From Acaryochloris thomasi RCC1774 (GTDB lineage: Bacteria > Cyanobacteriota > Cyanobacteriia > Thermosynechococcales > Thermosynechococcaceae), in NCBI RefSeq assembly GCF_003231495.1, contig NZ_PQWO01000041.1, positions 1 to 20,970 on the forward strand: DNA of 20,970 bases, read 5' to 3'. Under the pieces are notes generated by a model, which saw only the letters and a program-made list of their open reading frames with translations, ran no database searches and was not told where the DNA came from. The position numbers and the translations under genes are program-made. This document shows positions 1,124 through 19,947 of this stretch, piece after piece (positions within the stretch are counted from its first letter, which is position 1; every line of letters begins with the position of its first letter).

Positions 1124-1143
1124 AGAACTTGAGAATGTCGGCG

Positions 1144-2331
1144 TTAAGGACGATACCAGAGATTCGCAATCCGCTTGGCTGTTGTCAGCGCCTGCTGTCG
1201 ATCGGGGTTGTCTAACAGAGCGGTGACGTGGCCCAACTTCCGGCCTGGATGGGCCTTAGCCTTACCATACCAGTGAACAAAAGTATTGGGGAAGGTCGCC
1301 ATCATCTCTCGTTTTTGGCCGTAGTCATACTCAGCCACTTCATAGCCCAAGAGATTGATCATGATCGCCCCTGGTGCCGTTAAGCTAGTGTCTCCTAAAG
1401 GCAGCCCGCTAACGGCCCGCAAATGCTGCTCAAACTGTGACGTTGCGCAGGCATCAAGCGTGAGATGCCCGGAATTATGGGTACGGGGGGCGATCTCATT
1501 GACGAGAATCTGGCCGTCGGGGGTTAAGAAGAGTTCAATCCCGAAGATCCCTACCGCCTCTAGATCATTGAGGAGTGTGGTGGCTGCATTTTCGATCTGC
1601 TGTTGGGTCTCGGAAGCCAGGGCCACCGGAGCCATTGCCCAGTGACAGACCTGATGATGCTGATAGGTTTCGATCACCGGATAAAGAGCTACCTCGCCCG
1701 TGATCGAGCGAGCCGCAACAATCGCCAGCTCTCGCTCGAAGGGAATAAATGCTTCAGCCATGAAGGCTTCAGGACTGGGGGGCGTTGGAAAGTCATTCCA
1801 GAAAGCCTGAAGCTGCACGGCATCATGCAAAATAAACGTGCCCTGGCCGTCGTAACCGTGGCGACGCGACTTCACCACCAGCGGAAAGTCGAGGGTGCTG
1901 ATATCAGTGCTGGGCCCAATCGTCGTAAAGGCCGGGACGGGGAGGCCCAATTTTTGCAGATAGGTGCGCTGTTCATATTTATCCAGCAAAGGCTGCAGCG
2001 CGGTTAGGGCAGGCCGAAAGCAAATGCCTTGGGTCGCAAGCTGGCTGAGGGCTTCTAGATCGACAAATTCGTTTTCAAAGGTGATCACCTGGCAGTGTTG
2101 GGCCAGCTCGGCTGTGGCCTTCGCGTCATCGACCGCGGCAAAAACGGGGTGACCGGAGGGATGGGAAAAGTTTGCGATCGCAGGGTCTGTCTTGTTCGGT
2201 GTCTGCACCGATAGCTCAATGCCGAGGTCCGCAGCGGCTTTTGCCATCATCCAGGCCAGTTGTCCACCGCCGATGACGCCAACCCGTTGAACCGTTGCTG
2301 GATCCGCAACCGATGAATACACCGCAGCCAT
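1144..2331 (-). CDS. purK: N5-carboxyaminoimidazole ribonucleotide synthase (ATP-grasp)
   Basis: 395-aa ORF. It has the N-terminal VGVIGGGQLAWMMA motif, the ATP-grasp core PLVVKSRRHGYDGQGTFIL, the PurK/PurT signature LVNEIAPRTHNSGH, and the C-terminal HWYGK...GRKLGHVT. Confidence 0.85.
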   Translation of the reverse strand: MAAVYSSVADPATVQRVGVIGGGQLAWMMAKAAADLGIELSVQTPNKTDPAIANFSHPSGHPVFAAVDDAKATAELAQHCQVITFENEFVDLEALSQLATQGICFRPALTALQPLLDKYEQRTYLQKLGLPVPAFTTIGPSTDISTLDFPLVVKSRRHGYDGQGTFILHDAVQLQAFWNDFPTPPSPEAFMAEAFIPFERELAIVAARSITGEVALYPVIETYQHHQVCHWAMAPVALASETQQQIENAATTLLNDLEAVGIFGIELFLTPDGQILVNEIAPRTHNSGHLTLDACATSQFEQHLRAVSGLPLGDTSLTAPGAIMINLLGYEVAEYDYGQKREMMATFPNTFVHWYGKAKAHPGRKLGHVTALLDNPDRQQALTTAKRIANLWYRP

Positions 2332-2354
2332 AGCTTTAACTTGAGTCTCTACAC

Positions 2355-2768
2355 TTACTCGTCAGAACGACCTGACTCTACTCTCTCAATATTGTCGACG
2401 CCAATCCAGCCGACCAAGGATTGCGTTTTATCATCTTTCTCTATGTCTAGTTCTACCTTCTGCCATTTTTTATCGCTTGAGATATCAACAACCCTGAGGG
2501 GCTGGCGATAGTCTAAAACAGTTATGGCCTTGGCATCGGTGCTGGGAGCAGGCCGCAAAAACAGGCCGTTTTGATAGGAGACTGTTGCCTCATAGGCGGC
2601 AATTTTGGGCGTGACGGCGGCCTTGTCGTCATTGGGAAAAGTGGGCTTTGGTGGCGCTTTTGAAAACTGACTAAAGTAGAAGTAGCCTGCGATTGTCAAC
2701 CCCCCTGCAATGAATGCCAACCCTAAGAACACACCGAGAATCAGTTGGGCGAGTTTTGACCAGTTCAT
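2355..2768 (-). CDS. membrane-anchored SH3b-domain protein
   Basis: 137 aa with one N-terminal TM helix (LILGVFLGLAFIAGGLTIAGYFYF). A bacterial SH3-like pattern follows: YEATVSYQNGLFLRPAPS...ITVLDYRQPLRVVD...KWQKVEL...GWIGVDNI. Confidence 0.6.
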   Translation of the reverse strand: MNWSKLAQLILGVFLGLAFIAGGLTIAGYFYFSQFSKAPPKPTFPNDDKAAVTPKIAAYEATVSYQNGLFLRPAPSTDAKAITVLDYRQPLRVVDISSDKKWQKVELDIEKDDKTQSLVGWIGVDNIERVESGRSDE

Positions 2769-2801
2769 AGAGTTCGGACAGGAGCAGACATTGAGCAGGC
2801 G

Positions 2802-4325
2802 CTAGTCAGGCTGCTGGAGCTGACGCTGAATACGCAAACTCAGTGTACTATGCTTGGACGCCAGCCGCGCTTTCCCTGATGCAGCCCATTCTTGCAGGAA
2901 CTGCACCTGCTCCTGAGCCGTGCGCGCCAGCGGGATAATTTGGCTGGCTGATTCGAGAATATCGTCGGTGGTGAAGTCCCGGTTTTGACTGAAGCCCAGA
3001 TGCATGGCTTCGATTAAACACTGCTCAATTTCAGCCCCAGAAAAATCGGGGGTTTCGTAGGCCAGCCGCTCTAAATCGTAGATTGATAAGTTATGGGGGC
3101 GCAGCCGCGATAGATGCACTGAAAAAATATCTTGACGCTCTTCGGTGGTGGGCAAGCCTACAAAAAAGACTTCATCAAAGCGGCCCTTCCGCAGGATTTC
3201 GGGAGGGAGGGACTGAATGTTGTTGGCGGTTGCCACCACAAATACGGGGGACTGCTTCTCTGCAAGCCAGGTAATAAAGGTGCCGAAGACGCGGCTTGTG
3301 GTACCCGAATCCCCCCGACCTTCAAAACCGGCAAAGGCTTTGTCAATTTCGTCAATCCAAAGGATGCAGGGGGCTAGGGCTTCGGCAAGCTGAATCATTT
3401 GCCGGGTCCGAGATTCGGATTCCCCGACGAGGCCCGCAAACAGACGCCCCACGTCTAGCCGCAAAAGAGGCAAGTGCCAGTGGTGGGAGATGGCCTTTGC
3501 GGTCAACGATTTCCCTGTGCCTTGAATGCCTGCCAATAGGAGGCCCCGAGGGTGTGGTAGGCCGTACTGTCGGGCTCGTTCTGAGAAAGCGCCGCCGCGT
3601 CGCAGTAGCCAGTCTTTGAGGTTGTCGAGTCCCCCAATGTCAGAGATGTTCTCTTTGGCGGGGTAGAAGTCTAGGATCTGGGTTTGCCGAATGGTCTGGC
3701 GCTTTTCTTCGAGGATCAGGTCTACATCGTCGGCGCTGACTTGGCCGTGGGTTGCGATCGCACGTGATAAAACCCGCCGAATCCGCTCCATCGAAAGCCC
3801 TTGGCAGGATCTGACGAGATCATCTAACGCCTTACCTTCAAGACGGCTGTTCGTAGCCGTTAAAAGCTGCTCGACCTCTTTCCCGATTTCCGCCGCATTG
3901 GGCAACGGGAAGTCGAGGACATTGAGCGCTTCACTCAGATCGGTGGGAATGACTAGCTCACTGGAAAGCAGCACAATGTTTTTCGGCTGGGACTTCAGCT
4001 CTCGGGCGAGGTTACGCAGCTTGCGAGACACTGCAACATCATCGAGAAAGCGATGGAAGTCCCGCAGGATAAAAATGGCGGGGGCGCTAGTCGGGAGCTT
4101 ATTGATCAGATCGAGGGCTTGTAAAGGATTGCGTCGGGCAAAACCGTCATCGGTGGGGTTGCCCTGGTAGCCATCGACAAAATCCCAGGTGTAAATAGCG
4201 CGATTGCCCTGTTTTTTGGCGGAGGTTGCGATCGCAACCTCCGCCCGCTCTTCTTCTTGGGTCGGAATATAAATCAGCGGATATCTGGCCCGCAACAGGA
4301 GTTCAAAATCTTCACTAAAGCCCAT
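2802..4325 (-). CDS. ycf46: AAA+ ATPase, Ycf46-like
   Basis: 507 aa. Walker A is [13 protein letters not shown], Walker B is [10 protein letters not shown], and the Arg-finger region is [14 protein letters not shown]. The N-terminal [19 protein letters not shown] block resembles cyanobacterial and plastid Ycf46. The symbol comes from motif memory only. Confidence 0.7.
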
Positions 4326-4463
4326 ACTGATTTACCGACCGTGAGAGGGTGTCAGTATTCTACAATTTTCCCTACGACAGCGGATTGAGCATTTCGCCGC
4401 ACAATGGCGGTCATTGCGGGCTTTAAGCGTCAAGTCCCGCGTTCTTGAGATTTATTACCGCTC

Positions 4464-7400
4464 TTATTTGACAACGGCCCGGAAGCGGATGAGGCCAAAG
4501 GAATCGTTAGGGGTACCTGGGCTGTTGGCATGGGGGATCGTCCCAAGATTGACGACCACTGCGCCATTATCTTCAGATTGATTGGGCACGTTACTGCAGA
4601 CATCTGGCAGTACTGCTCCTGGCGGGAAGAACTGCGCGGTATCGCCATCATTATCGTTAGAGAAGGAGAATGTATCGCCGTCGTACTCCACAAGAATGCC
4701 GCGATTGGCACCCGCGCCGCCCCCGGGTGCTGGCGTGACTGCATTGAAGGTATCGGGGACAAAGGTTTGGGAATTGGGGATGCGATCGCAAAACTGCACA
4801 TCCTCTGCATCTTGGCTTCCATCCGAAAGAAAATAGATTGTATATTCAACCTCATCGCCGGGCTGGGTTTCACCCCCATTCGTCTGCCCTCTCAAAAAGC
4901 CGCTAGTGTTGCTGTTAGGGGTATTGGGCCAGTTCTCTGTATCAATCGGGTTCGGCGCTGGATTGTCTAAATCATTGTCATCATAGGGATAGTCAGGGGC
5001 ATTGACGTATACATCAAGGTCAGTGCTGCCATTGGTCGTTTGACCATTAACGCGGGTGATTCGCTTCACCAGCAGCAGATTGGGATCATTCGCGGCCGCT
5101 GCTGTAATAGTGACTCCATAATCTTCCACCTCGCCATCAAGGGCAGAACCCACCGATGCATCATCGCGATTGGTCGTGTCGGCACTTGAATCAAGATCTT
5201 CTGTCGTCACTCTGACGCGAACATAACTTGCACCTGCGGTGATATCAGGACCAGAGCTACCGATATTGCTCCAGCTTAAATTCACTGGGGCATTCGTACT
5301 GTTGGCCGCAACGGTCGCGTCAGCCGCTCGTTCGTCCTCGTCAAATTCGCCATCCCGATCAAAGTCGATCCAGGCGTAGACGTTCGCAGGCACGTTGTTG
5401 GTGTTGTTGACAGTCGTTGTCAAGCTATAGCTGGTGTCTGTCTGCTCAAGGACAGGGAAAGTGGTAATGCCATCTTCATCGTCCACTGCCGGAGTATTGA
5501 CTGCGTCATCACCGTTGGCTGCAGCTGAACTCTGGGGAGCGGCTTCAGCATCAGGTCGGGTCGCGCCCAAGTGCAGAGTGCTAGAAATGGTGTGCTGGGC
5601 GGGAGTATCACTGCTGTTTAGGGTGCCATCCCCTGTTGTGTCGTCATAAGTGAGCGGGGCATCGCCATAGTCAGGATCGGCACAATACTCAATTGAAAGA
5701 AAGCCCAGGGTAACGTTCCCACCGTTGTTATCTTCTTTGCCCGTGACCACCCTAATCTCATCGATGGGGCCAGGGATGGATAGGTTGTAGGTATTGGTGA
5801 TTACGCCCGGATCGTTGTCCTGATTTTGGCTCACGACCGTATCACTTTGGCCATCCCCATCCTCATCTCTGAACGACATGCCGGTACTTAAATTACTGAA
5901 GTTTGCCGCCGTGATCTGCACCGGAACGCCTCGAAGCGTGGCGATGATATAGGTGCCATCGTCATTGTTCAAGCCACCTGCCACCATCGCAAAGTCAGTG
6001 ACGGGGGTGGGGAAGGAAAAAACGTACGTCGCCTGATTATTGGTGTTGAGAAAGCTATTGGAATTGTTGCTCTGGACAAACAGGTGAGGGCCAAAGCCAG
6101 GAGCCGGATCGTTTTGGACCTGGATGCCGGCGTTAAAGGCCGCACTGCCACTCAGCTCGGTATTGAAGCTGAGGCTGCCGTTGTTAAATGTGAGCGGCGT
6201 TGGGAGCGGTATTGTGGAGCCTTGCAGGGCTTGGTTGAGCGGGAAGTTGGCGCTATTGAAGGTTGTGTTTGCCTGTGCAATACAAGCCGGACCCACGGGG
6301 GTAGAGGCCGCTGCGATCGCAACTGCATAGTCTTCCACCTCACCATCGCTGGCGGCCCCCACTGAGGCATCATCTTGATTCGTCGTCTCGTTCGTATTCA
6401 CATCAAGGTCATCTTGGGTGACCCGGACGCGCACATAGCTGGCTCCGTCCTGGATATCGAGACCGTTGCTGCCAATACTGCTCCATTTCAGCTTCACTGT
6501 GCCGTTCGTATTGCTGGGCACCTGACCACTGCCGTCGAGAGCAATTGTGTCACTGTCAACCGTCGCCCGTTCATCTTCATCGAACTGGCCATCGCGATCA
6601 AAGTCGATCCAGGCAAAGACATTGGCCGGATTGCTGCTGCCGTTGTTGATGGTAGCCGTCAGGCTATAGGCCGTCGTTGTCTCATCGAGAGCTGGGAATG
6701 AGGTCACTCCATCTTCATCATCTGTGCCGTTATTATCATCGCCATCGGCCCCAGGCCCCGGCTGAGTATCGGCTTCACCGTCAGGCGCAACGCTGCCGAG
6801 ATAGAGGGCTGTGACTTCGTGGCTGGCATCGCCATAGGTGTCAGGGGCGTCGCCAAAATCGATGGTTTCGTTCACCGTGGCCTGTTGGCTGGCACTTGCT
6901 TCTTGACGATGGTTTGTGGCATCGCCGTTGATGGGGTCGCCATTGGCATCGCCGTTGTCGGTACCAGAATTATCCTGTGTGTAAAGATCGCGATTGTTGC
7001 CGCCATCAACGAAGGGCTGGTTCTGCTGATCGGTGGGGGTGGTATCTCCTAACACAATGGTGACCTGATCGCCCATACTGGCGCTCGTGCTGACTTTGAT
7101 CGGCACTCGCACCGTCAGAACACCACTTGCAGGGAGTGACCCACCGGTTAACCCAGGAATCGTCAGTGCTCCGGTGGTGGCTCCTGCTGTAGGGATGGTG
7201 ACGGGGGAGCTGCTCAAATCTGTGGCTGCAGTGGAGCCAGCGCCATCGGGGTCAAAGCCAATAATTTCGATGTTTCCCTGCAGTGCCCCGTTGGTGACGG
7301 CAGAGGGGGCGCCCGGAATAAAGAATTGGGTAGGGTCATTGCCGATATTGGTGATGGTGTAGGTAAAGTACACGACATCACCGGGATTGATGACTCCATT

Positions 7401-7721
7401 CCCCTGCTGAGAACCCGCGCCTGATACATTGCTGGGGGCTTCAGTGGGTGTGGTGCTGCTAGAGACGGTGATGCCCGCAACCTCAGCGACTCGGACCACA
7501 ACCTCATTGGATTCGATATTGGTGGTGGAACTGTCAACGGGATTTACGAAACTGCCGGTGGCTTGGTTCCTAATCACGGTGCCAGGAGCAGGGGGTGCGG
7601 CCAACACGGAGAGCGCGGGTAGCCAGTTGCCGCCGGTAAAGAGGACTGCCAACAGAAGTTTGAGGGGCAACGTCAATCGTTGGGTCTGTTTTCTTTTAGG
7701 GTGGGTGTGACGCTCAAACAT
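4464..7721 (-). CDS. large secreted modular surface protein P1: signal peptide, DUF11-like N-terminal region, GEVED module, unassigned central domain, second GEVED module, shared C-terminal module
   Basis: Uninterrupted 1085-aa ORF with an ATG start. The signal peptide has a long basic n-region (MFERHTHPKRKQTQRLTLPLKLLLAVLF...LSVLAAPP). PGDVVYFTYTITNIGNDP is a DUF11-type core. Two copies of GDAP.TYG...DDEDG...WIDFDRDG.FDEDE...YVRVRV...DGEVEDY follow. The C-terminal module is shared with P2 and P3. Confidence 0.85.
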   Translation of the reverse strand: MFERHTHPKRKQTQRLTLPLKLLLAVLFTGGNWLPALSVLAAPPAPGTVIRNQATGSFVNPVDSSTTNIESNEVVVRVAEVAGITVSSSTTPTEAPSNVSGAGSQQGNGVINPGDVVYFTYTITNIGNDPTQFFIPGAPSAVTNGALQGNIEIIGFDPDGAGSTAATDLSSSPVTIPTAGATTGALTIPGLTGGSLPASGVLTVRVPIKVSTSASMGDQVTIVLGDTTPTDQQNQPFVDGGNNRDLYTQDNSGTDNGDANGDPINGDATNHRQEASASQQATVNETIDFGDAPDTYGDASHEVTALYLGSVAPDGEADTQPGPGADGDDNNGTDDEDGVTSFPALDETTTAYSLTATINNGSSNPANVFAWIDFDRDGQFDEDERATVDSDTIALDGSGQVPSNTNGTVKLKWSSIGSNGLDIQDGASYVRVRVTQDDLDVNTNETTNQDDASVGAASDGEVEDYAVAIAAASTPVGPACIAQANTTFNSANFPLNQALQGSTIPLPTPLTFNNGSLSFNTELSGSAAFNAGIQVQNDPAPGFGPHLFVQSNNSNSFLNTNNQATYVFSFPTPVTDFAMVAGGLNNDDGTYIIATLRGVPVQITAANFSNLSTGMSFRDEDGDGQSDTVVSQNQDNDPGVITNTYNLSIPGPIDEIRVVTGKEDNNGGNVTLGFLSIEYCADPDYGDAPLTYDDTTGDGTLNSSDTPAQHTISSTLHLGATRPDAEAAPQSSAAANGDDAVNTPAVDDEDGITTFPVLEQTDTSYSLTTTVNNTNNVPANVYAWIDFDRDGEFDEDERAADATVAANSTNAPVNLSWSNIGSSGPDITAGASYVRVRVTTEDLDSSADTTNRDDASVGSALDGEVEDYGVTITAAAANDPNLLLVKRITRVNGQTTNGSTDLDVYVNAPDYPYDDNDLDNPAPNPIDTENWPNTPNSNTSGFLRGQTNGGETQPGDEVEYTIYFLSDGSQDAEDVQFCDRIPNSQTFVPDTFNAVTPAPGGGAGANRGILVEYDGDTFSFSNDNDGDTAQFFPPGAVLPDVCSNVPNQSEDNGAVVVNLGTIPHANSPGTPNDSFGLIRFRAVVK
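4467..5090 (-). other. shared C-terminal module, copy in P1 (aa 878-1085)
   Basis: DPNLLLVKRITRVNG...DYPYDDN...NWPNT...PGDEVEYTIYFLSDG..DAEDVQFCDRIP..QTFV...GANRGILVEY...NDNDGDTAQF...LPDVCS...EDNGAVVVNLG...FGLIRFRAVVK runs directly into the stop codon. It aligns along its full length with the ends of P3 and P2. Confidence 0.75.
5106..5678 (-). repeat. GEVED-type acidic module, copy 2 of P1 (aa 682-872)
   Basis: DPDYGDAPLTY...HLG...PDAEA...DDEDGITTFP...YAWIDFDRDGEFDEDE...ASYVRVRVT...RDDASVGSALDGEVEDYGVTI. This is an internal paralogue of 6315-6866. The two copies share an identical 20-nt stretch (5356-5375 = 6595-6614). Confidence 0.7.
6315..6866 (-). repeat. GEVED-type acidic module, copy 1 of P1 (aa 286-469)
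   Basis: TIDFGDAPDTYG...YLGSVAPDGEAD...DDEDGVTSFP...FAWIDFDRDGQFDEDE...ASYVRVRVT...QDDASVGAASDGEVEDYAVAI. DFDRDG at 6588-6605 is a DxDxDG calcium-loop motif. Confidence 0.7.
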
Positions 7722-7774
7722 AGTGGGTTCTCAAGGCGGGTAGGGAGCTAATAGAGAGGGGGCAGAGAAGGTGG

Positions 7775-10462
7775 CTATTGATTAATGGTGGTGGTGTAGC
7801 GAAAGAATCCGTAGGCATTATTCGGCTGTCCTTGCCCCGTAGAGCCAGGAAAAAGCGTTAGGTTCGGCAGGCCGGTATTGGCGGCCCCAGTGATGTCAAA
7901 GATGAGGGTGCCGTTGGCGTTGGCTCCCTGGAGGTTACAGGTGGCGGGGAGGGTAGTACCTCCCGCAACGAATTGGGTGCGATCCGCTGCATCATTGGCG
8001 GCGCTTAGATCAAGAGTGGCGCTGGTGCCCAGACGAACCTGTACGTCTGGGTCTGGGCCACCGTAGGCGGCTAGCTTGAGCGCTTCTTCGGGTTGGATGC
8101 GATCGCAAAATCGTACGCCCTCTGCCGCGGAACTACCGGTATTCAAAAAGTAGACGGTGTATTCAACATCATCTCCAGGCTGGACCGTACCGGCATCAAT
8201 CTGGCCGACCAGATAATTCGCAGGCCAAAAGGGGTGGTTATCCGCGTCGGTGGATGTTCCCCCATCTTCCACATCGGTGAGCTGGGTGTTATTGATGGCC
8301 GTGATCCGCTTCACCAAAAGAACGTTAGGGTCGCTTACCTGATAGTCTTCGACTTCGCCATTACTGCCGCCACCGTTGAAGTCGCTTGTGGTTAACGGCG
8401 CGTCGTTGATGCGCAGGCGAGCATAATAGGTATCGCCTGCGGCCAATCCGCTTAAGTTTGTCCAGGTGAGTGTTGCTGTCGTGTCGTTATCTGCAACTGT
8501 GGCAACGACGCCTTCACTCGCTTGAAACGTTCCATCCTGATTAAAATCGATCCAACCGGCTAAATAGGCATCTTCGCCCGTTGTATTGGTCACCCTGACC
8601 GTTGCGCTATAGCTCGTTGAATTGCCAATAAAATTAACCCCCTCTTCGTCATCAGGGGCTGTGCCATTGTTATCATCGCCATCGGCATTACTGGTAGGCT
8701 GACCATCTGCCTCTAGATCAGGAGCAACCGTCCCTAGGTGGAGGTTTGCGCTAATGAGGTGACTGGCAGGAATACCCCCAACGGTAATATCTGTATCAGT
8801 GCCATAGGTATCAGGGGCATCACCAAAATCGTTATCGTCGGTGTCAGCAATGATCGTCTGCGTTTCTTGATCTTGAATGTTGCCAAAGACCCAAGTGTCG
8901 ATGAAGTTGGTGTTGCCAATTCCGCCACTGCTGAAATTGCCCCAAGTATGGCGGCCTGCAGGCGTATTAGACAAAGCACCGACCAGATTGCGAGTACCAG
9001 CGATTGGACTGTCGTCCCAATGATTCAACACAGGTGTTCGGGGGTTAGAACCATTGGCGTCCCAAATGGCTAGGCCGTTATTGGTCCCTCCTCCACTTGT
9101 CTCTGCATCAAAAGCAACGAAGTGATACTCTCCCAGGCCAATACTCACTTGTGCGGGGTAGGTTCCTGATGGCAAGACAGCAGCATTGATGCCCCGCCCA
9201 TCCCACTCGACAGCGTTAGCTCCTGCAGTGGCACTCCCAAATAAAACGCGATCGCCGTTATCAAAGCTTCTATTATCGTTGGTGTCAATGATGATTCTGT
9301 AAGTACCCGCAACGTCTAGATCAAATTGGAAGAAACCTGAATCTTGAACGTTGGTTGTTGAATTGGGAGAAATTGAATTATCTTGGCTGTTATTATCAAA
9401 AAATCGCAGATTAGTCAGATTCGGTGATGCTGGCTCTGGTAAGACCGGCAGTACGGCTGAACTTGAATTTGGTGGAGCCAAGTAGATCGGGAATTCTCTT
9501 GCAAAAGATGCACCGGAACTGCCTAATGCACTGGTACGGGAATTGGGTGGGTTAAGGCCAATGCTATTGGCCACGATCTCATGGCGCTGGGGGGCAAAGT
9601 TATTGAGATCGAGCTGCCAAATAAACTCTGTGTTAGGCCGTCCCCCCGGGGTTCTGATATAAAGGTCAGCGTCGTAACCCCCTGGTGCGAAGAAGGTGTT
9701 GCCTGCATTGAATGCCCAACTTGTGGCCCAAATTTGTCCATTATCTGCATTGGGATCGGGATTAACGGAGGCAGAGGAGGTAACGGTTATATCAAAGTAG
9801 GTAAAAACGTTGTTGCTACCACCACCGTTCCCTTGGCTAGTGTTAAACAAATTAATTTCATAGGTGCCTGCTTCCGACGCAATGAAACGAACGGGGGTCG
9901 TCAAATTGCCTACTGCACTATCAGGATTATCTTGGTTGTTGCAAAGCGTGGCTTGGGACGCAGTTTGTGCATTGCTCCCAGCTAAACGCCAAGCAGTGAC
10001 AGCACTATCGAAGAAACCAGGTGACCCGGCTGCCACTTGGTTGTTGTAGTCAAGCGGTGCACCCGAAGGGCGAAACACTCGGATAGCAGTAGTGTCTGTT
10101 AAAGACCAACCGCAGAGAGAAACGTTGATAACGTCACCAGGGTTTTCTACATTGACTTGAATCCCTCTGTTGGTACCTTGAATAAAGCCGTTAGCAGCAT
10201 TGTATTCAAACAGGAAAACGTTGAGTCCTTGGTCACCTCTGCCGAGCTGTTGAGAACCTTCACCCCAGGCAGGAATAGCTGAAGCTAATAAGATAATGGC
10301 TCCAAGACCAAGACTTGAAAGTGTAGAAGCAAGTCGCCCTCTGCTATTGGTCTGGGGCCGATCGTGAACAAGATTATAGCGATTATGATCTAACCCGACA
10401 ATACTTTTACTATTCTGAAGGGTCTGCTTAAATAATGACTTCATTATGACCTGATAATTCAA
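7775..10462 (-). CDS. large secreted modular surface protein P2: long signal peptide, unassigned ~475-aa N-terminal region, one GEVED module, shared C-terminal module
   Basis: 895-aa ORF. The track start is TTG at 10462, and the first ATG (MKSLFKQ...) at 10444 is the more likely start. The hydrophobic core LGLGAIILLASAIPAWG comes only after ~45 residues. The GEVED module runs DFGDAPDTYG...DDEEGV...GWIDFNQDG...YYARLRI...NGEVEDY. The tail is DPNVLLVKRIT...PGDDVEYTVYFLNTG...RFCDRI...LPATC...YGFFRY. Confidence 0.85.
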   Translation of the reverse strand: MNYQVIMKSLFKQTLQNSKSIVGLDHNRYNLVHDRPQTNSRGRLASTLSSLGLGAIILLASAIPAWGEGSQQLGRGDQGLNVFLFEYNAANGFIQGTNRGIQVNVENPGDVINVSLCGWSLTDTTAIRVFRPSGAPLDYNNQVAAGSPGFFDSAVTAWRLAGSNAQTASQATLCNNQDNPDSAVGNLTTPVRFIASEAGTYEINLFNTSQGNGGGSNNVFTYFDITVTSSASVNPDPNADNGQIWATSWAFNAGNTFFAPGGYDADLYIRTPGGRPNTEFIWQLDLNNFAPQRHEIVANSIGLNPPNSRTSALGSSGASFAREFPIYLAPPNSSSAVLPVLPEPASPNLTNLRFFDNNSQDNSISPNSTTNVQDSGFFQFDLDVAGTYRIIIDTNDNRSFDNGDRVLFGSATAGANAVEWDGRGINAAVLPSGTYPAQVSIGLGEYHFVAFDAETSGGGTNNGLAIWDANGSNPRTPVLNHWDDSPIAGTRNLVGALSNTPAGRHTWGNFSSGGIGNTNFIDTWVFGNIQDQETQTIIADTDDNDFGDAPDTYGTDTDITVGGIPASHLISANLHLGTVAPDLEADGQPTSNADGDDNNGTAPDDEEGVNFIGNSTSYSATVRVTNTTGEDAYLAGWIDFNQDGTFQASEGVVATVADNDTTATLTWTNLSGLAAGDTYYARLRINDAPLTTSDFNGGGSNGEVEDYQVSDPNVLLVKRITAINNTQLTDVEDGGTSTDADNHPFWPANYLVGQIDAGTVQPGDDVEYTVYFLNTGSSAAEGVRFCDRIQPEEALKLAAYGGPDPDVQVRLGTSATLDLSAANDAADRTQFVAGGTTLPATCNLQGANANGTLIFDITGAANTGLPNLTLFPGSTGQGQPNNAYGFFRYTTTINQ
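7778..8335 (-). other. shared C-terminal module, divergent copy in P2 (aa 710-895)
   Basis: It keeps the same anchor points as P1 and P3: LLVKRIT, PGD(D/E)VEYT(V/I)YFL, the A..V.FCDRI cysteine, the LP..C cysteine and a terminal aromatic-rich strand. It lacks the DYPYDDN/NWPNT insertion. Confidence 0.6.
8336..8830 (-). repeat. GEVED-type acidic module of P2 (aa 545-709)
   Basis: Same motif order as the two P1 copies. The DxNxDG loop DFNQDG lies at 8531-8548. Confidence 0.65.
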
Positions 10463-11743
10463 GAATTGAGGGTTAGTTCCAAAGAGACAGTAATGCTGGC
10501 ATTAGAGAATTATGTAGGTAATAAATTACCTATATATAGGAGGCTAAAATGCTATTTCAAAAGGGTCTTTGATGTTCTCGACTGTGGCTCAATGCCAAAT
10601 GTTAGCCACTATGAACGTGCCCATTCTTGCTAGAGAATGGGTTTATCCCGTAGTGCTTAATCTGCAGCTTTATGCCAGCTACCGCCTTAATGCAAGGCAG
10701 CTTATTGCAGTTTGTCTGCTGCGAGTACGAGACTCTGCAGCCAAATCTGCACCCCCTGTATCTCTAGGACACCCAAATTGGGTCTCGAATTGATCGTAGG
10801 CAGCACTGATTATGACCGTCATCATGCTGATAACTATATTGAGTATCGCTATTTTGTGAGGAGTCGCAATCGTGAAAACTACCGATCTTTATCGGCGTTT
10901 CACCTATACGGCAAATGCTTGCCATACTCTACTGATTTCAACCTCCTTAAAACTACGGATCTTTTTGCCTTAACTGGCAAATTTAACCCGTGGGTCTACG
11001 GAGAGAAGCATGGTCTTGAGGGAAACTAGCAGGGGTAGTTGTAGTTCCCTCGTGACCTGTTCGTTTGCAATGGCCTGGGGCCTTACGGCCAAGATTTTGC
11101 GTTCTAGAGTCGTAGCGAACCAGCAGCATAGAAGTGGGAGATTTAATGCTTTGGTGTTGGAAGAGCGCTTTGAATCTTGTCCATAAATCTATACTGCTAG
11201 GGGAAGGGTTGCGATCGCATCCATGATCTCGTCTATTTTGTATAACTTGTCCAGCCACCGTAGAACTTTTTGATACAAGCTACCGCACCTTCGTCTAAGA
11301 GCGGATCATTCCCGAGAATATGGCAGAGCTACCCAGATTCTATTGTTTTCTCCATTGGTGAGAGGTTTAAACGTGGCATCCAACCAGCGTCACCATTATT
11401 TTGAGCATCAATGTTGTCACTGGTAATACTGGCAAGAAGGCGATCCGCGACTCTAATGGTGGTAGTCCTAACCTGATTCGATTCCACTACCGTGACGGTC
11501 GCCCCAGAAACCGCGTCTCCCTCCCCTGAAAGCTGCAAAAAGCTGCATTCATATCTGGACTCTCGACAACTGATAGCGTCTGGGCCACGGCAGGGAGCGC
11601 CCACGGACTCAGTTCACTGCTTAGAAGTAGAACTATACTCAACTGATGGGAACTAATATTTGGTAAAGGAAAGCTCTCTTGAGATGGAATGAGTCAAGCG
11701 ACAATCCGTACTGCGTGTACTGGGTCGTCTTCAAATGCTGCCC

Positions 11744-14143
11744 CTATTTAACCTTGGCTCGAAAGCGGACCAAGCCGTAGGACGTCGCAGGATCACCTGA
11801 ACTATTGGCCTTGGGCAAATTTCCCAGATTCACTACAATGGCCCCGTTATCTTCGGTTTGGGCTGCTGCACCATCGCAGGCAGAAGGCAGTGTTTCACCG
11901 GATGGATAAAACCGTGCGGTATCACCGTCATCATCATTTGAGTAGGATAGCGTGCTGCCGTTATACTCCACTAAAATGCCACGATTGGCACCGACCCCAC
12001 CGCCAGTTGCAGCAGGCACAGAATTATAGGCATCTGAGACAAACGTCTGGAAATCTGGAACCTTGTCGCAGAGTTCAACATCTGATGCATCCACATCGCC
12101 AGTTGACAGGAAGTAGATGGTGTATTCCACTTCATCATCAGGGCGGGTTGTTCCCCCTTCACGGCCCCCGATCAGAAAAGTACTGCTAGTACTACCGGTG
12201 GTATTGGGCCAGTTTTCGGTATCAGGAGTGGGGAACTGCGCGTTTCCAGTCAGGCTGGGTTCCAGTGTGTTGTCATCGTAGGGATAATCTGCGTCTTCAA
12301 CATAGGCCGCGAGATCGGTGCTGCCATTGGTTGCGGTGCCGTTGACTCGAGTGATGCGTTTGACCAGTAGCAAATTCGGATCTTGAGGCTCACTGACGAT
12401 AACATCAGTGGGGTCGCTCTGAGCCGCTGTACCAGGATCATCACTCATACCGGAAAAGGGTATACCTGAGAACTCACCCCTGTAGTCAATATCAGCCTGA
12501 TTAGAAATGGTGGTCGGGAAGCTAGAAATTCCTGAATCAACCCTAACTCTGAATTTCACCACAACCGTATCGTCCACAGCTCCAGGAACATTAGGATCAT
12601 CAAAGGGGACAACGCCACCATTGAGAATACCAGCCCCAACTCCGGTTCTGAAGACAACACGGTTATTCGCGCTATCAAACTCAGCCCGATCATCATTAGG
12701 GGCATCTGAGGGGGCATCTGGAGTCGTAAACGTTGGGTCAGGATCTGTAATTATTTGTAGAGAGTCAGGCTCGTAAGTTGTGTTGGTAGGAATATCATCG
12801 GTCAGAATGGCATCAGTTGCATTATCGTTACCTGTATTTTGGTAAGTAATCGTATATTCCAGAACATCACCGGGAAAAACATCACCACCATTAATATCTG
12901 TAACCGTCTTAGTAAAGTTTTGGTCTAGTACAGGTTGAAAGACCTGAACGCTAAAGAAGAATGCAGTGGGATAGTAAACATCTCCCGTCGTCGTAAATTT
13001 TAGGTCAGCTGACGTTGCACCATTTGGAATAATAGGGTCACCACTGGTATCCAGTGCTTCAACAATATCTATATCCAGTGCCAAGAGATTAGAATAATCA
13101 GGATTTCGACTGATTGGGCCTAGTACTGGACCACCTGGAGTGGTAATAACGGAGGTATTTGTCTTGATCCCTATACCATATAGTGAGTTAGAGCTATTAA
13201 AAAAGTTGTTCGACGGATTATTGGCATCGGAGACAACCTGGTTATTGATCTGAAATTCATCTGGCTGGAAACGGACGTCACCTTCACTAATAAATGCTCC
13301 CATCGCGGCTTCAAAAGGACCAGCCTGTGGCGTTAAAAAGCCACTGATAGTGGCAGTTCGGTCAGTACCGCTAACAGGTAGGTACCCGTCAAAGATGGTC
13401 ATGTTACGAAGAACTTCTGTATCATCTTCGTACACGACAATTAGGGTCCATCCACCATAACGATCTGTGCCTTTACCTGTTTGAATATTGGCTCCGAAGT
13501 ATTCGCCGCTTCCGCCCTGCCGTACTAAGGTCGTAACGTCAGCAAAAGCGCTATAGCGAGTACTTGCAGCAGTACCGGAAGTATCTAGCTGCTCCGCAAG
13601 AACTGTCTGGTAAATGCCACCAGGCACCTTAAAGGACATCTGGCTGCGTGAAGCTGCACTTGGGGCTGTACTGCCACCTTGTCCACCCGCACTAGTGTCG
13701 CCAGTCCAGTAAAGTCCTGCCCAAACGATATTGAACCCAGAATTCGCGCTAGGGAATGTATAGGTCGATGATGAAGAGTTAAAGGTGGAAGCATCTCCAT
13801 CAATGTCGATGTAGTCAATGAAGAAGTCATTATTGGCAGTGGCAGGTGTGACTGTAGCGTTACGGGCCGCTGCACAGTTTGCTGAGTTGAAGGCGCCTGG
13901 AGCCGTCGAGCAGGTCGTAACGGCATTACCGAAAATTGTGGTGCGACCTCTGGCTTGAACCTTAAGACGAGGAGTGTAGTTGCGAGTTTGGGCCTGTGCG
14001 GGTGCCATCACCGTGCCGAAGGCTGCGAAAGAGGTCAGGGCCACTCCAGCCAAATAACCGAGTGTTTTACGATGTTTGGTGGGTTTGAGTCTCTGCTTGA
14101 TAAATTGAGACGTTTGCCTAAGAAATGGGGACGCAAATTTCAT
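11744..14143 (-). CDS. large secreted modular surface protein P3: signal peptide, unassigned ~350-aa N-terminal domain, DUF11 conserved-repeat domain, shared C-terminal module
   Basis: 799-aa ORF with an ATG start. The signal peptide ends AFGTVMAPAQA-Q after a long basic n-region. The DUF11 core is GDVLEYTITYQNTGNDNATDAILTDDIPTNTTYEPDSL. The tail is roughly 60 percent identical to the P1 tail in my hand alignment. Confidence 0.85.
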   Translation of the reverse strand: MKFASPFLRQTSQFIKQRLKPTKHRKTLGYLAGVALTSFAAFGTVMAPAQAQTRNYTPRLKVQARGRTTIFGNAVTTCSTAPGAFNSANCAAARNATVTPATANNDFFIDYIDIDGDASTFNSSSSTYTFPSANSGFNIVWAGLYWTGDTSAGGQGGSTAPSAASRSQMSFKVPGGIYQTVLAEQLDTSGTAASTRYSAFADVTTLVRQGGSGEYFGANIQTGKGTDRYGGWTLIVVYEDDTEVLRNMTIFDGYLPVSGTDRTATISGFLTPQAGPFEAAMGAFISEGDVRFQPDEFQINNQVVSDANNPSNNFFNSSNSLYGIGIKTNTSVITTPGGPVLGPISRNPDYSNLLALDIDIVEALDTSGDPIIPNGATSADLKFTTTGDVYYPTAFFFSVQVFQPVLDQNFTKTVTDINGGDVFPGDVLEYTITYQNTGNDNATDAILTDDIPTNTTYEPDSLQIITDPDPTFTTPDAPSDAPNDDRAEFDSANNRVVFRTGVGAGILNGGVVPFDDPNVPGAVDDTVVVKFRVRVDSGISSFPTTISNQADIDYRGEFSGIPFSGMSDDPGTAAQSDPTDVIVSEPQDPNLLLVKRITRVNGTATNGSTDLAAYVEDADYPYDDNTLEPSLTGNAQFPTPDTENWPNTTGSTSSTFLIGGREGGTTRPDDEVEYTIYFLSTGDVDASDVELCDKVPDFQTFVSDAYNSVPAATGGGVGANRGILVEYNGSTLSYSNDDDGDTARFYPSGETLPSACDGAAAQTEDNGAIVVNLGNLPKANSSGDPATSYGLVRFRAKVK
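11747..12385 (-). other. shared C-terminal module, copy in P3 (aa 587-799)
   Basis: DPNLLLVKRITRVNG...DYPYDDN...DTENWPNT...DDEVEYTIYFLSTG..DASDVELCDKVP..QTFV...GANRGILVEY...NDDDGDTARF...LPSAC...EDNGAIVVNLG...YGLVRFRAKVK runs directly into the stop codon. Confidence 0.75.
12386..12931 (-). other. DUF11 / conserved-repeat domain of P3 (aa 405-586)
   Basis: LDQNFTKTVTDINGGDVFPGDVLEYTITYQNTGNDNATDAILTDDIP.NTTY fits the canonical DUF11 pattern (K..., PGD.[LV].Y.[IV]...N.G...A..V...D.[IL]P). Confidence 0.65.
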
Positions 14144-14618
14144 GGTTAAAAATCAAGAAAAAATTATCTTAGGACTAACAAAAAATATTTTCAAAAATAT
14201 AACAACTGATGATTTATGAGAAAATAAAAGCTAAAGAATTGTTGCCCATATAGCTTCAGTATGATGTCGTCTAAGATTCTGCAAAAAATATTTCTTGCCT
14301 ACTTATTATTCCCGTCTTAAGTCAAGATTCTCTTGATTTTTTGTATATCTTGTGGCTTTTATGTATGTTTTCTGTATGCTTTTGGTGCGATAAAATAAGC
14401 ACCGGTGTGTTTAACGTTTTTAGTGCTTCTCCCAGTAATGGCCTGGGAGTAATCAGACAGAAATTTCTGATGCGCAACACGAAGTCCAGAGACACTAAGA
14501 ATTTCACGAATACTTTTGCACATCGTCTAGGTGCAAACTCAGGTGCATTGTGGCCGTGATGATCGTTAGTGCGGTTCCTTTCAAGGCAAGAGCGAATGCT
14601 CTATATGGCCCTCACCTT

Positions 14619-14650
14619 TCTCCCCTCTCCCAACGTTGGGAGAGGGGAGA
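14619..14650. repeat. 32-bp perfect palindrome TCTCCCCTCTCCCAAC|GTTGGGAGAGGGGAGA
   Basis: The two 16-nt arms are exact reverse complements with no spacer. The site lies 60 nt downstream of the stop of the 14710-15084 ORF. Neither side has a U-tract. Confidence 0.9.
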
Positions 14651-14709
14651 ACGATCCTTGCGCTATTCTGTTACAGTTCCCTGCTCTTAACGTTGTTGCT
14701 GTTGGCGTC

Positions 14710-15084
14710 TTACTTCACTAGTGCTTGACCCTTATGGTTTTGGGCTGTCTGTTGAATGGCTTCTAGCTGAGTCCCGCCGACCGCATTAAACAATGAATCT
14801 GAGATCACAATTTGAGCTGGGGTACTCCTAACAGGAGCATTATTGGCTTCCGTGACCTTTAGCTCTGCGTTGTTAGATATTCTCTTTCGCACGCTCTGGT
14901 TGTCAGGAGCTTTAAAAGACATCGTGGCTTGACCTTGCATGATCGTTCCTGGAGGGGTTGAAGCCAGTAGCGGTCGAGCCTGAATTGCGGCGCTGCCCTC
15001 TACCAAAGCGATCGCTAGCAGGATATACAAGGGCTTGATCAGCTGTTTGTTGTTTTGGATGAAAGATGCAGAGGGCTTAGACAT
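14710..15084 (-). CDS. small secreted protein carrying only the N-terminal motif seen in P1
   Basis: The ATG at 15084 gives MSKPSAS...LYILLAIALVEGSAAIQA, a signal-like segment. The track's TTG start at 15099 is the alternative. PPGTIMQGQATMSFKAPDNQSV..ISNNAELKVTE then parallels P1's APGTVIRNQATGSFVNPVDSST..IESNEVVVRVAE. Confidence 0.55.
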   Translation of the reverse strand: MSKPSASFIQNNKQLIKPLYILLAIALVEGSAAIQARPLLASTPPGTIMQGQATMSFKAPDNQSVRKRISNNAELKVTEANNAPVRSTPAQIVISDSLFNAVGGTQLEAIQQTAQNHKGQALVK

Positions 15085-15385
15085 GGTAGTGAAGGACAAA
15101 GAGTTTATACAATAGAAGGCTTAAGCGCGGTCAAAGAGAGTAAAGAGTGTCTAGTTTGTGCCGGTTCTCTCTCAGTTCAGACTGCTTTGCAGATACTGGC
15201 TTTCTGAACGCTTGATCCAAATGTGGATGACTGATGGTTGCGATCGCATCTACGAACAGGCTTATTAACGTATAACTTCAGGCCTAAGCAGGCAATCATG
15301 AACGGGAGGCGTTTAGGTTTTGGCAACTGGTCATGGCTAGAGCAATTGGCTTTAGGGGACATTCTAAGGGTCCGTCTGTGAGCAA

Positions 15386-15998
15386 ATGGCAAGCCGTGCA
15401 AAGTATGACTATCTGGAGCCTTTATTCAAGGGTGTCATTGACTGGAAGCTGATTGAGACCCATTGGCGAGACCTGATGCGGATGGTGCTCTCAATCAAGG
15501 CTGGAAAGGTTTTGCCCTCGACGTTGCTGCGGAAATTGAATAGCTACAGCAAGAAGAATCGACTTCATCAGGCGCTACGAGAGTTGGGGAGAGTCGGACG
15601 GACGATCTTCCTGCTCCGGTTCGTTTCCGAGCCTGCCGTTCGGCGGCAGATCACGGCCTGCACTAACATTGTTGAGACCTATCACCATCTCCTCGATTGG
15701 TTGCACTTTGGAAAGCATGGGGTGATCACGGAAAATGATCCTGATGAACAGGAGAAGCGGCTCAAGTCTTTGGACTTAGTGGCCAGTGCGGTGATTTTCC
15801 AGAATGCGGTGGATATGTCGTTGGCGGTGCAGCAGCTCAGTGCGGAGGGATATCCCAGACCGGGCGGCGTTGGCGACGGCGAGTCCCTATTTGGTGGGGC
15901 AGTTGAAGCGGTTTGGAGACTTCGTGGTGGACATGGAGACGGTGCCGGTTCCTTTTGAACAAGCCATTGAGCTGCCGCTCGACTTCGATGAAATCTAG
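15386..15998 (+). pseudogene. Tn3-family transposase, C-terminal ~200 aa only, frameshifted
   Basis: YLEPLFKGVIDWKLIETHWRDLMRMVLSIKAGKVLPSTLLRKLNSYSKKNRLHQALRELGRVGRTIFLLRFVSEP..RRQI...ITENDPDEQEKRLKSLDLVASAVIFQN matches the conserved Tn3 TnpA C-terminus. The frame is closed upstream by TAA at 15365-15367. Homology jumps frame near 15855: ...SAEGYP, then DRAALATASPYLVGQLKRFGDFVVDMETV in the 15804-15998 frame. Confidence 0.8.
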
Positions 15999-16088
15999 AT
16001 GGGGCAAGGCTTTTGGGAAGAATTTAGTATGATTGAATTGACTGGAAAACTTGGAAGTCTTGATTTCTGAAAGTCAAGCTGTGCATAG

Positions 16089-16679
16089 GTCCTGGAACCA
16101 TCTTGCGCCTTATTACACGTATCTCGGTATGACCTCTACATGAATCCCCAGGCGGAACATCTACTCGATTGGTTTCATATCACCATGCGAATCACAGTGT
16201 TGGGGCGATACCTCAAGGGGGTGAAGCACCACGATGCTGACTAAGAGGAAGAGATGCCCCAACGCTTGGAAAGCATCAAGTGGTATTTGTGGCATGGCAA
16301 TAGGTTCCAGGCCATGCAGCATATTGAGCTTCTGGAAATGGATGCCGAATGTCTAGAGATTGACTATCTCAAGTTGAGCAAGATGGCGAAGGCGATCCGA
16401 GAGTTTCGGGTCTATATTCAGAACAATCTGGACTTTATCGTCAATTATGGTGAGCGATACCGTTGTGGTGAAAGGATTTCAACAGGTTTTGTAGAGTCGG
16501 CGGTCAATCAGATTATCGCTAAGCGAATGGTTAAAAAGCAGCAAATGCGATGGACGCTTAAGGGCGCTCACCTACTGCTTCAGGTGAGGACTAAGGTGCT
16601 CGATCAGCGGTGGAAGGATGCGATCAAGCAGTGGTACCCAGACACTAATCAGGTTGAGGAAATACCTATGGCTGCGTGA
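16089..16679 (+). pseudogene. ISKra4-like transposase, C-terminal part only, with an in-frame stop
   Basis: ...NPQAEHLLDWFHITMRITVLGRYLKGV..HHDAD-TAA(16242-16244)-EEEMPQRLESIKWYLWHGNRFQAM...VESAVNQIIAKRMVKKQQMRWTLKGAHLLLQVR. The LDWFHITMR and KWYLWHGN motifs are ones I associate with ISKra4-family transposases. The stop codon is in frame with the 16254 ORF. There is no N-terminal part. Confidence 0.6.
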
Positions 16680-16700
16680 TTCCCCCGGTTTTGATCACTC

Positions 16701-16976
16701 TCAATTCCCCACCCTTAACGCCCAGGCTTCAGGTGTCCAACGTCCATGCACCGCTACTTCAGCAATGGTCTCCAACCGGCCTTCAGCTATCGCAAATCGG
16801 ATTACATCAGCCCCGAGAGGAAATCCATCCCAGCTCAAGATCACTTTCGCCAAGAACCTGCTCGATGGTTCCTCCCTTGAGCTTGTTATCAAGAATGCGA
16901 TTCCGAGAGTGGAAATTGCGCTTGAATGAATTGTCATGAAATCCACATCAGTTGAGAAAACATGAAGTTCAACCAA
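16701..16976 (-). CDS. hypothetical small ORF, doubtful
   Basis: 91-aa ORF. Its only support is the segment FAIAEGRLETIAEVA, which recurs in the 18151-18366 ORF with mostly synonymous differences. Alternative frames here also look partly coding, so it may be a decayed gene. Confidence 0.25.
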   Translation of the reverse strand: MVELHVFSTDVDFMTIHSSAISTLGIAFLITSSREEPSSRFLAKVILSWDGFPLGADVIRFAIAEGRLETIAEVAVHGRWTPEAWALRVGN

Positions 16977-17242
16977 ATTACTGAGATTGCATTATTGCTG
17001 ATTGCAGTGTTCTGCTAGAAATCACGCCAGACCAATCGTTTCAGAGATTGGGTGGCGCATCATCATAGAGAGCAAAATCAAATGCACTTCACTATGTGAA
17101 GAACAATAGTCTCTAAAGTTAGAGCGGCTTCCTAAAATTTGACTGGCCGTCGAAGATTCGTACAGCCCTTACGATATTGTCGCTAACCATTTAAGAGGCT
17201 TAAATTACCTTCGCCTGTGTCGTTATTCTCTTGAGGGATGAA

Positions 17243-17950: not shown

Positions 17951-18150
17951 ACTGCAGGTACAGATGTAGTTCTGTTATCAACAGTTTGGACAGCTTTGGA
18001 GTCAGGCCGACATCCGCATAAAAAGACGCAAGATGATTCTATGACCTATATGCAGAGAGGCTTTTAGGAACCCAAGTCCTCGAGTTTTAAGCTCTTCAAA
18101 TCACTCTAGGGTTTCTCTAAAAGCCTTTCTATAATTAGAGTTCATCTAGA

Positions 18151-18366
18151 TCAATAGGAAGCTGAATCACCTGCTCTGTTTGAACAGGCACCCTCTCCAT
18201 ATGCCGCAACTTCCGCGATGGTCTCCGACCGGCCTTCGGCCATCGCAACAAATTCAGCACAGCGATCGCCTATAGGACCAGAAGGATGGATGGCGCAGAC
18301 GAGGTGGCCGGTCAGGTAATGGTATCGGCAGTCAAAGCACTGGGGTAACTTGCAGAGTCCAGTCAC
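18151..18366 (-). CDS. small Cys-rich protein (possible zinc ribbon) with a C-terminal AEGRSETIAEVA segment
   Basis: 71 aa with a GTG start. The cysteine pattern is LCKLPQCFDCRYH...LVCAIHPSGPIGDRCAEF, which includes a CxxC and two further Cys. It ends 15 nt from the next gene on the same strand. Confidence 0.45.
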   Translation of the reverse strand: MTGLCKLPQCFDCRYHYLTGHLVCAIHPSGPIGDRCAEFVAMAEGRSETIAEVAAYGEGACSNRAGDSASY

Positions 18367-18381
18367 AGTAACTGCTCTGAT

Positions 18382-19938: not shown

Positions 19939-19947
19939 ACTCGTCGT

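Follow-up and report, generated by a model that had tools for sequence, protein, structure and literature searches.

A conserved C-terminal CLIPPER-type module on secreted cyanobacterial proteins with diverse heads, and a neighbouring operon for a predicted outer-membrane barrel

The DNA analyzed here, referred to as the window, is an entire contig of 20,970 bp from the cyanobacterium Acaryochloris thomasi RCC1774, and it carries three large genes, P1, P2 and P3, whose products end in a homologous module of 185–212 aa (hereafter the tail) that reaches the stop codon in each of them. An earlier reading made from the sequence alone (the sequence-only reading) had drawn attention to these genes, and the three open reading frames (ORFs) do lie on one strand at the coordinates it gave. 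The bounds of P2 hold only for the longest ORF, which extends to a TTG at 10462; its true start is probably the ATG at 10444, six codons further in, which would give MKSLFKQ..., because the TTG-start sequence is absent from the protein collection and many relatives begin with MKSLFK. The three genes and their tails are as follows:

4464..7721, minus strand: P1, 1085 aa (WP_110989094, named 'GEVED domain-containing protein')
4464..5087, minus strand: tail of P1, aa 879-1085, 207 aa plus stop, a CLIPPER-type sandwich (see below) with K8, C100, D101, C164 and N174, ending ...FGLIRFRAVVK-stop
7775..10462, minus strand: P2, 895 aa as the longest ORF
7775..8332, minus strand: tail of P2, the one that has diverged furthest, aa 711-895, 185 aa plus stop, ending ...YGFFRYTTTINQ-stop
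11744..14143, minus strand: P3, 799 aa (WP_110989096, named 'DUF11 domain-containing protein')
11744..12382, minus strand: tail of P3, aa 588-799, 212 aa plus stop, ending ...YGLVRFRAKVK-stop

All of the anchor motifs quoted in the sequence-only reading are found in these tails, although its description of the tail as invariant has to give way to conserved, with 65% protein identity between the P1 and P3 tails and 35–37% between the P2 tail and either of them. The more distant position of P2 that it had described is thus borne out, as is its estimate of roughly 60% identity between the P1 and P3 tails over clearly diverged DNA (63% DNA identity). Third-codon identity between the latter two is 39% and their synonymous differences are saturated (pS 0.78), so that, given the 65% identity of the proteins, the pair reflects an old duplication under purifying selection, in keeping with what had been proposed, and no recent copying or gene conversion. 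The insertion of ~45 aa that had been assigned to P1 and P3 corresponds to a net length difference of only ~22–27 aa, and the P2 tail carries an 11-aa insertion of its own. As for the Sec-type signal peptides ascribed to all three proteins, these look plausible by eye only (a hydrophobic stretch, then AxA-like sites), since a hydrophobicity heuristic was non-discriminating, being passed by 169/193 tail proteins and by 144/245 control genes. About 10% of the tail proteins (19/193 by a loose pattern, for example in loci L003, L021, L028 and L041) have an MKSLFKHL-like start 20–40 residues before the hydrophobic core, an arrangement reminiscent of extended signal peptides.

A first homology search with the tail returned only proteins of up to 371 aa, which we read as a limit of the search and not as biology. 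A profile search of 1.84 billion representative proteins then gave 9,755 matches, the best 145 of which were classified and fell into two groups. Giant proteins of 2,000–7,700 aa made up 71 of them, each with up to 34 separate partial matches; these multi-DUF11 proteins match part of the profile, mostly positions ~45–125, and many end in other C-terminal signals. In each of the other 74, a single match spans the entire profile, and in 74/74 it runs to the protein's final residue. The same holds at the genome level, where all 139 full modules end ≤5 residues from the stop. Altogether 212 distinct full modules were assembled (the 74 representatives together with the 139 genes, which come from 76 genome loci plus the window), and no internal or tandem full module was found among them; nearly all of the 113 short matches are terminal as well. 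The expectation that homologues would always sit at the extreme C-terminus, and never in tandem or at internal positions, is therefore supported. Since ordinary DUF11 repeats match the core of the profile only, the flanks of the tail define a distinct subfamily. Named matches all come from cyanobacteria (Acaryochloris, Nostocales, Leptolyngbyaceae, Pseudanabaenaceae and others) save for two bins of metagenome-assembled genomes, and a scan of one genome per species confirmed at least 579 tail stretches. The two non-cyanobacterial labels are Parcubacteria (P0084) and Candidatus Gracilibacteria (L023, JAAUUT010000017.1); both are probably misbinned cyanobacterial contigs.

The stretch PGDEVEYTIYFL...V.FCDRIP of the tail matches the NCBIfam model TIGR01451 (DUF11-type repeat) over ~40 residues only, with scores of 31.3 bits for P1, 26.2 for P2 and 22.6 for P3 against a cut-off of 24, and the Pfam model PF01345 (DUF11) stays below its cut-off of 24.6 bits in all three (18.4, 21.2 and 15.9, respectively). 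Neither Pfam (2025) nor NCBIfam (June 2026) offers a model that covers the module, and no sorting-domain model matches it, so existing models leave the tail unexplained, as had been suspected. DUF11 was recently renamed CLIPPER, a CnaA-like immunoglobulin (Ig)-like fold that holds an intramolecular Lys-Asp-Asn isopeptide bond and in many cases a disulfide as well (PMC12617251). AlphaFold2, run with an alignment of 49 tails, predicted a nine-strand sandwich (pLDDT 93.4, pTM 0.90) that, together with the TIGR01451 core match, agrees with the DUF11-like beta-sandwich proposed in the sequence-only reading. A Foldseek search of this model against the Protein Data Bank (PDB) gave weak matches only (E 0.008–0.07, TM-score ~0.3), to Gram-positive pilus backbone proteins and to the CLIPPER structure 9IFR, and PDB sequence searches with the tail profile, the barrel protein described below and the canonical DUF11 domain of P3 returned nothing usable.

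Across all 212 modules, K8, R9, W53, C100, D101 and G198 never vary; 211 of the modules have T11 and 190 have N174, and R201 is nearly invariant. By position, K8 (in LLVKRIT), D101 (in CD.IP) and N174 (in NGA) match the CLIPPER triad, for which the internal DUF11 domain of P3 has the equivalent motifs FTKTV, LTDDIP and ISNQA. It is thus likely that K8, D101 and N174 form an isopeptide triad in the tail; the module also has two invariant cysteines, and a C100-C164 disulfide may accompany the triad. Judged by its sequence, the tail is a specialized single-copy terminal subfamily of the CLIPPER (DUF11) Ig-like sandwich, defined by a first strand LLVKRIT, an insertion of 40–70 aa with the invariant Trp, and a last strand YGF(I/V)RFRxKV(K/N/D)-stop. 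It shares with CLIPPER domains (PF01345, TIGR01451; 9IFR; PMC12617251) a homologous core (PGD.VEYT.YF...v.CD.IP), the Greek-key sandwich, a Lys in the first strand, an Asp in 'D.lP', an Asn in 'NxA', a disulfide (frequent in CLIPPER domains, putative in the tail) and an occurrence on surface proteins with signal peptides. The differences are that CLIPPER domains are typically tandem, mid-protein and ~110 aa long, whereas the tail is single, last and ~190–210 aa long (their arrangement in tandem along a stalk is seen in none of the 212 modules), and that the tail has its 40–70-aa insertion after strand A, a DGD motif and its own end strands.

The same kinship admits another account, according to which the tail would be the ordinary last CLIPPER stalk domain of paralogous fibrillar adhesins, with no sorting role, its position coming from descent and head swapping and its gene linkage (see below) from a surface gene island. 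The plain homology of the tail core to ordinary DUF11 repeats favors this account, and CLIPPER domains are indeed known from the stalks of fibrillar adhesins (PMC12617251). One would however expect a generic stalk domain to be repeated or internal in at least some cases, and 0/212 modules are; moreover, 131/139 modules from genome loci end within 0–1 residue of the stop, and the flanks together with K8, R9, W53, C100 and D101 show 100% conservation between distant orders of cyanobacteria despite the unrelated heads. We consider this account unlikely.

The heads themselves were said to be entirely different, which stands for P3 (unlike both P1 and P2) and fails for P1 and P2, as these have a GEVED-containing module of ~190 aa in common (~40% identity), present twice in P1 and once in P2, with one copy immediately preceding the tail in both proteins. 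The head features are:

6318..6860, minus strand: first GEVED-containing module of P1, aa 288-468
5109..5678, minus strand: second GEVED-containing module of P1, aa 682-871, ~39% identical to P2 aa 543-710
8333..8836, minus strand: GEVED-containing module of P2, aa 543-710
12482..12919, minus strand: internal canonical CLIPPER/DUF11 domain of P3, aa ~409-554, with the triad motifs given above

Tail-bearing heads across genomes fall into several recurrent, mutually unrelated types, and P1, P2 and P3 each belong to one: the P1 type with the signature 'AASPAPGTVIENQATGSF...VAEVAGITV', the P2 type with 'AEGSKEL..GG.RPYLE', which recurs across cyanobacteria, and the P3 type with 'RNYTPRF..ARG.TTIFGN.VTTC', which recurs in other genomes. 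Because several unrelated but recurrent head types are joined to one and the same tail, the tail is the constant part of a family whose heads have been exchanged.

Clustering the neighbors of tail genes revealed the kind of conserved partner that the sequence-only reading had suggested seeking in gene neighborhoods, namely an operon with a giant barrel gene immediately upstream of the tail arrays. Its genes run in the order C-E-B-A(-F) on one strand and are followed by one to four tail genes:

gene C: 300-900 aa, Pfam DUF7925 (All3292 type)
gene E: ~190 aa, single CLIPPER-like domain (All3291 type)
gene B: ~510 aa, CLIPPER plus SdrD_B (All3290 type)
gene A: 1,150-1,400 aa, the predicted barrel, with weak Invasin_D3/Big_1 matches and no match to a barrel model (All3289 type)
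gene F, often present: 500-770 aa, NosD-like beta-helix, in some cases with an OmpA domain

NCBI names the A proteins 'TonB-dependent receptor' or 'Ig-like domain-containing protein'. Among the 36 informative loci, i.e., those with ≥4.5 kb visible upstream of the first tail gene, gene A (with or without F) is the next gene upstream on the same strand in 30. The linkage is strong from the other side as well: starting from the barrel, a tail gene adjoins in 4/6 sampled loci, and the C-E-B-A core is present in every locus with a visible upstream flank. The Gracilibacteria-labeled contig carries genes B, A and F and two tail genes, its 5' end cutting off what lies further upstream. As in the window, 35/77 loci (each of ~20 kb) hold two to four tail genes, almost always on the same strand. 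Such same-strand tandem arrays are typical of duplication and, like the occurrence of some arrays without the operon nearby, they fit the view of the tail as the last stalk domain of paralogous adhesins.

An alignment with hhalign of the tail profile to the C-terminal domains of the C, E and B proteins found the generic PGD..Y core only, which means that these proteins do not carry the tail. The N-terminal ~280 aa of P1 are homologous to the N-terminus of the DUF7925 (C) proteins (35% identity, E 5e-16).

Several further features of the operon and its surroundings were observed. C proteins (in L018, L022, L025, L060, L062 and others) end in ...(T/E)F(T/I)FQR(K/R)VN-stop and E proteins (in L028, L060 and others) in ...YQ(V/T)QVR-stop, so both have conserved terminal strands. 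At the mature N-terminus, P1-type tail proteins have in common with B and C proteins a motif 'GT.I.NQATGSY.D....SN.V.V' (P1 aa ~44–85, window ~7467–7592; B and C proteins in L060, L062 and L071), which resembles the Asn-bearing last two CLIPPER strands, here alone at the N-terminus. The longer F proteins carry a C-terminal OmpA-like domain, with a Pfam match in L078 (5962–8163) and an ending ...ARNRRVE... seen in L020, L021, L038, L041, L042, L067 and L075; the presence of this domain suggests that F may be a peptidoglycan-binding component of the apparatus. Finally, ten loci (L008, L014, L021, L037, L038, L041, L059, L061, L063 and L071) have a gene of ~195–215 aa (MT.PKF.GKYRIESTRL...) directly next to a tail gene on its upstream side; in four of these it separates the first tail gene from the barrel gene, and in three more from the beta-helix gene. 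Judged by eye, its product resembles a REP-associated or IS200-type tyrosine transposase.

AlphaFold2 modeled the A protein (alignment of 45 sequences) as a pair of Ig-like domains and, after them, ~30 or more long strands, and Foldseek matched this model to MtrB, SprA (the translocon of the type 9 secretion system, T9SS), Deinococcus SlpA, the FimD usher, LptD and TonB-dependent transporters. As all of these matches have low TM-scores, they support a very large outer-membrane barrel and nothing more specific. In Anabaena PCC 7120, the member of this family (~1,250 aa) is All3289 (BAB74988.1), an outer-membrane protein candidate (PMC9705863). Synteny and the run of UniProt accessions give the order there as all3292 (Q8YS00, a DUF7925 seed) to all3288 (Q8YS04). 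In Trichormus variabilis (L079), the All3289 orthologue is followed by the gene of a 1,053-aa P2-type protein with the tail at residues 852–1053, its C-terminus; All3288 would therefore be a tail protein, by synteny with this gene. The Anabaena exoproteome lists All3288 and All3292, both as 'SP' and 'Extracellular', and does not list All3289–3291 (PMC10957091 supplementary files 13, 14, 17). The literature that we searched describes neither the tail nor the function of the operon, which together with the missing family models upholds the earlier suggestion of an undescribed family.

Could the tail be a module of fiber or pilus assembly, comparable to the pilin domain of FimH/PapG or to the donor strand of type V pilins? 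The barrel would then be an usher-like platform, the ~190-aa protein a chaperone or adaptor, and the DUF7925 and CLIPPER plus SdrD_B proteins further subunits, the subunits being joined by strand exchange or by an intermolecular isopeptide bond. The gene order is in fact chaperone-usher-like (a small Ig-like protein, then the barrel, with the variable-head proteins last), FimD is among the structural matches of the barrel, and Gram-positive pilus backbone proteins are among the nearest PDB folds of the tail. The conserved extreme C-terminal strands of the DUF7925 (..TFTFQRKVN-stop) and small (..YQVQVR-stop) proteins point the same way, as does the start of P1-type heads and of B and C proteins with a motif resembling Asn-bearing last CLIPPER strands. 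The prediction for the tail is, however, a complete sandwich (pLDDT 93) that supplies both its first and its last strand and lacks none, the operon proteins match neither an usher nor a PapD model, the GT.I.NQATGSY motif is found on some head types only, and no filament has been reported. Taking both sides together, we regard a fiber-assembly role as decidedly unlikely.

Among known systems, the classical chaperone-usher adhesins (FimH, PapG) with FimD are similar in their variable N-terminal head, their conserved C-terminal Ig-like domain and the position of the adhesin gene downstream of the outer-membrane barrel gene within the operon. They differ in that the tail is predicted to be a complete fold and not a strand-deficient pilin, and in that the operon barrel is much larger and has N-terminal Ig-like domains; we rejected this identity on the complete predicted fold, on the lack of an usher (PF00577) or PapD match in the operon, and because FimD is matched at low TM-score only. 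The C-terminal domain (CTD) of T9SS cargo in Bacteroidota (Por_Secre_tail, TIGR04183) is likewise an extreme C-terminal Ig-like sandwich on Sec-exported proteins with diverse heads, associated with a very large outer-membrane barrel, and SprA is among the structural matches of the operon barrel. The tail differs from it in being about twice its size and in occurring in cyanobacteria only, and identity was rejected since no Por_Secre_tail-type match appeared in Pfam or NCBIfam even at E ≤ 10; none of the T9SS machinery genes (PorU, PorV, SprA, PorK-N) turned up in the operon or the 76 loci, to which this search was confined. An LPXTG- or PEP-CTERM-type signal was rejected in view of the amphipathic beta-strand (..RFRAKVK), with no hydrophobic helix, in which the tails end, and the C-terminal 12-strand barrel of type 5 autotransporters in view of the predicted sandwich of 185–212 aa, with no match to a model of either kind. 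The statement of the sequence-only reading that the tail fits none of these signatures (T9SS CTD, LPXTG, PEP-CTERM, autotransporter) accordingly holds across Pfam and NCBIfam. In Slam/type 11 secretion, a dedicated outer-membrane barrel encoded nearby recognizes a conserved C-terminal beta domain of its cargo, as is proposed here for the tail, although the cargo domain there is an 8-stranded barrel and the translocon a 14-strand DUF560 protein; we know of no homology of the tail or the operon barrel to that cargo domain or translocon.

The arginines and lysines of the tail raise one more alternative, in which the tail would be a polymer-binding anchor that works independently of the barrel, with a basic patch (K8, R9, R201, R203, K205 and K207) binding lipopolysaccharide O-antigen, the sheath or sulfated exopolysaccharide. 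Anionic exopolysaccharides are abundant in cyanobacteria, R9 is invariant and R201 nearly so, and the C-terminal strand is rich in Arg and Lys. Such an anchor would nonetheless leave both the obligatory last position of the tail and its tight gene linkage to the barrel operon unexplained, and no carbohydrate-binding family match above threshold was obtained; we think it very improbable.

The window contains no usher, sortase, exosortase, TpsB or type 1 secretion system gene, as had been stated, and none of the operon genes A, B, E and F. A tblastn search of all operon proteins against it detected no trace of the barrel, of the beta-helix protein or of the CLIPPER plus SdrD_B protein, and gave only the homology of the P1 N-terminus to the DUF7925 protein and generic DUF11 matches. 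Downstream of P1 lie genes for a Ycf46-type AAA ATPase, an SH3-domain protein, PurK and a cation-efflux protein, and upstream of P3 the following:

14710..15099, minus strand: 129-aa ORF with a signal peptide and a 'PGT..QAT.SF' motif
15386..15958, plus strand: Tn3-family transposase fragment, aa 774-928 of 954
16254..16679, plus strand: ISKra4-family transposase fragment, aa 304-422 of 422

The 129-aa ORF resembles the first ~75 aa of P1-type tail proteins in other genomes (39–42% identity, E ~5e-5) and may be either a truncated gene remnant or a short paralogue. The two transposase fragments, debris of insertion sequences, occupy the place that the barrel operon has in other genomes, which would fit a rearrangement there. 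The G+C content is 0.52–0.57 over positions 1–9000 (P1 and most of P2), shifts at ~9000–10000, and is 0.44–0.51 over 9001–20000 (the start of P2, P3, the transposase fragments and the remainder). Further along, an ORF of 239 aa (17231–17950, plus strand) has a signal-like N-terminal segment and an end, ...NSVPEPDAILGSVILCIGLFVKRRYS..., in which VPEP, a hydrophobic helix and basic residues resemble a PEP-CTERM sorting signal; it had no Pfam or NCBIfam match at the thresholds used. In Cyanobacteria bacterium P01_A01_bin.17, whose Ycf46-type AAA ATPase shares one 90%-identity cluster with that of the window, C-E-B-A-F is present with no tail gene after it. As the window lacks the operon and the operon of this relative lacks a tail gene, the tail arrays and the operon are unlinked in this lineage.

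Our preferred interpretation, to which we give an even chance, is that the tail serves as a handle at the C-terminus through which very different Sec-exported heads are coupled to the barrel apparatus, to be exported across the outer membrane or displayed on it, in analogy to the T9SS CTD or to the pilin domain of chaperone-usher adhesins. Under this interpretation, the Sec pathway would bring a tail protein to the periplasm, where its tail would take on a rigid sandwich fold; a K8-N174 isopeptide (with D101 catalytic) and a C100-C164 disulfide would probably lock it. The barrel complex would recognize the first and last strands of the tail (LLVKRIT and YGFIRFRxKVK-COOH) and would either move the protein across the outer membrane or retain it there by its tail, so that the head would be exposed or shed. 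This interpretation draws on the exclusively C-terminal position of the tail, its distinctive flanks and their conservation, the diversity of the heads, the gene linkage seen from both sides, the predicted barrel and the listing of All3288 and All3292 in the Anabaena exoproteome. Several observations weigh against the handle interpretation. The sorting or anchoring function is something that we infer; 6/36 informative loci have no operon upstream, the window and the close relative L077 show that tail genes and operon can be unlinked, and in this lineage the barrel was seen only in the relative that shares the ATPase cluster and not in A. thomasi itself. Adjacency could also reflect merely a shared 'cell-surface island'. 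On the structural side, the barrel model is moderate only (pLDDT 70, pTM 0.55) and its structural matches are low (TM-score 0.13–0.26), and N174 of the putative isopeptide triad, which was placed by motif alignment, is replaced in 10% of the modules.

More tentatively, and with greater doubt than for the handle itself, the tail and the All3292–All3289 operon may constitute an unrecognized cyanobacterial system for outer-membrane export or surface display, widespread among cyanobacteria, in which a CLIPPER-derived domain would have taken on a CTD-like role and would bring dozens of different adhesin-like or enzyme-like heads per genome through or onto a giant barrel. To our knowledge, how Sec-exported proteins of cyanobacteria cross or become attached to the outer membrane is largely unknown, the proteobacterial and Bacteroidota routes being mostly absent or unproven. 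A tail that marks hundreds of proteins, together with one linked barrel operon, makes this question testable, and the genes all3288–all3292 of Anabaena PCC 7120 offer a tractable setting. The tail profile would furthermore provide an annotation rule for many proteins now named 'hypothetical', 'DUF11' or 'GEVED', and if the tail is indeed a portable sorting handle, it would be usable for surface display or secretion in cyanobacteria.

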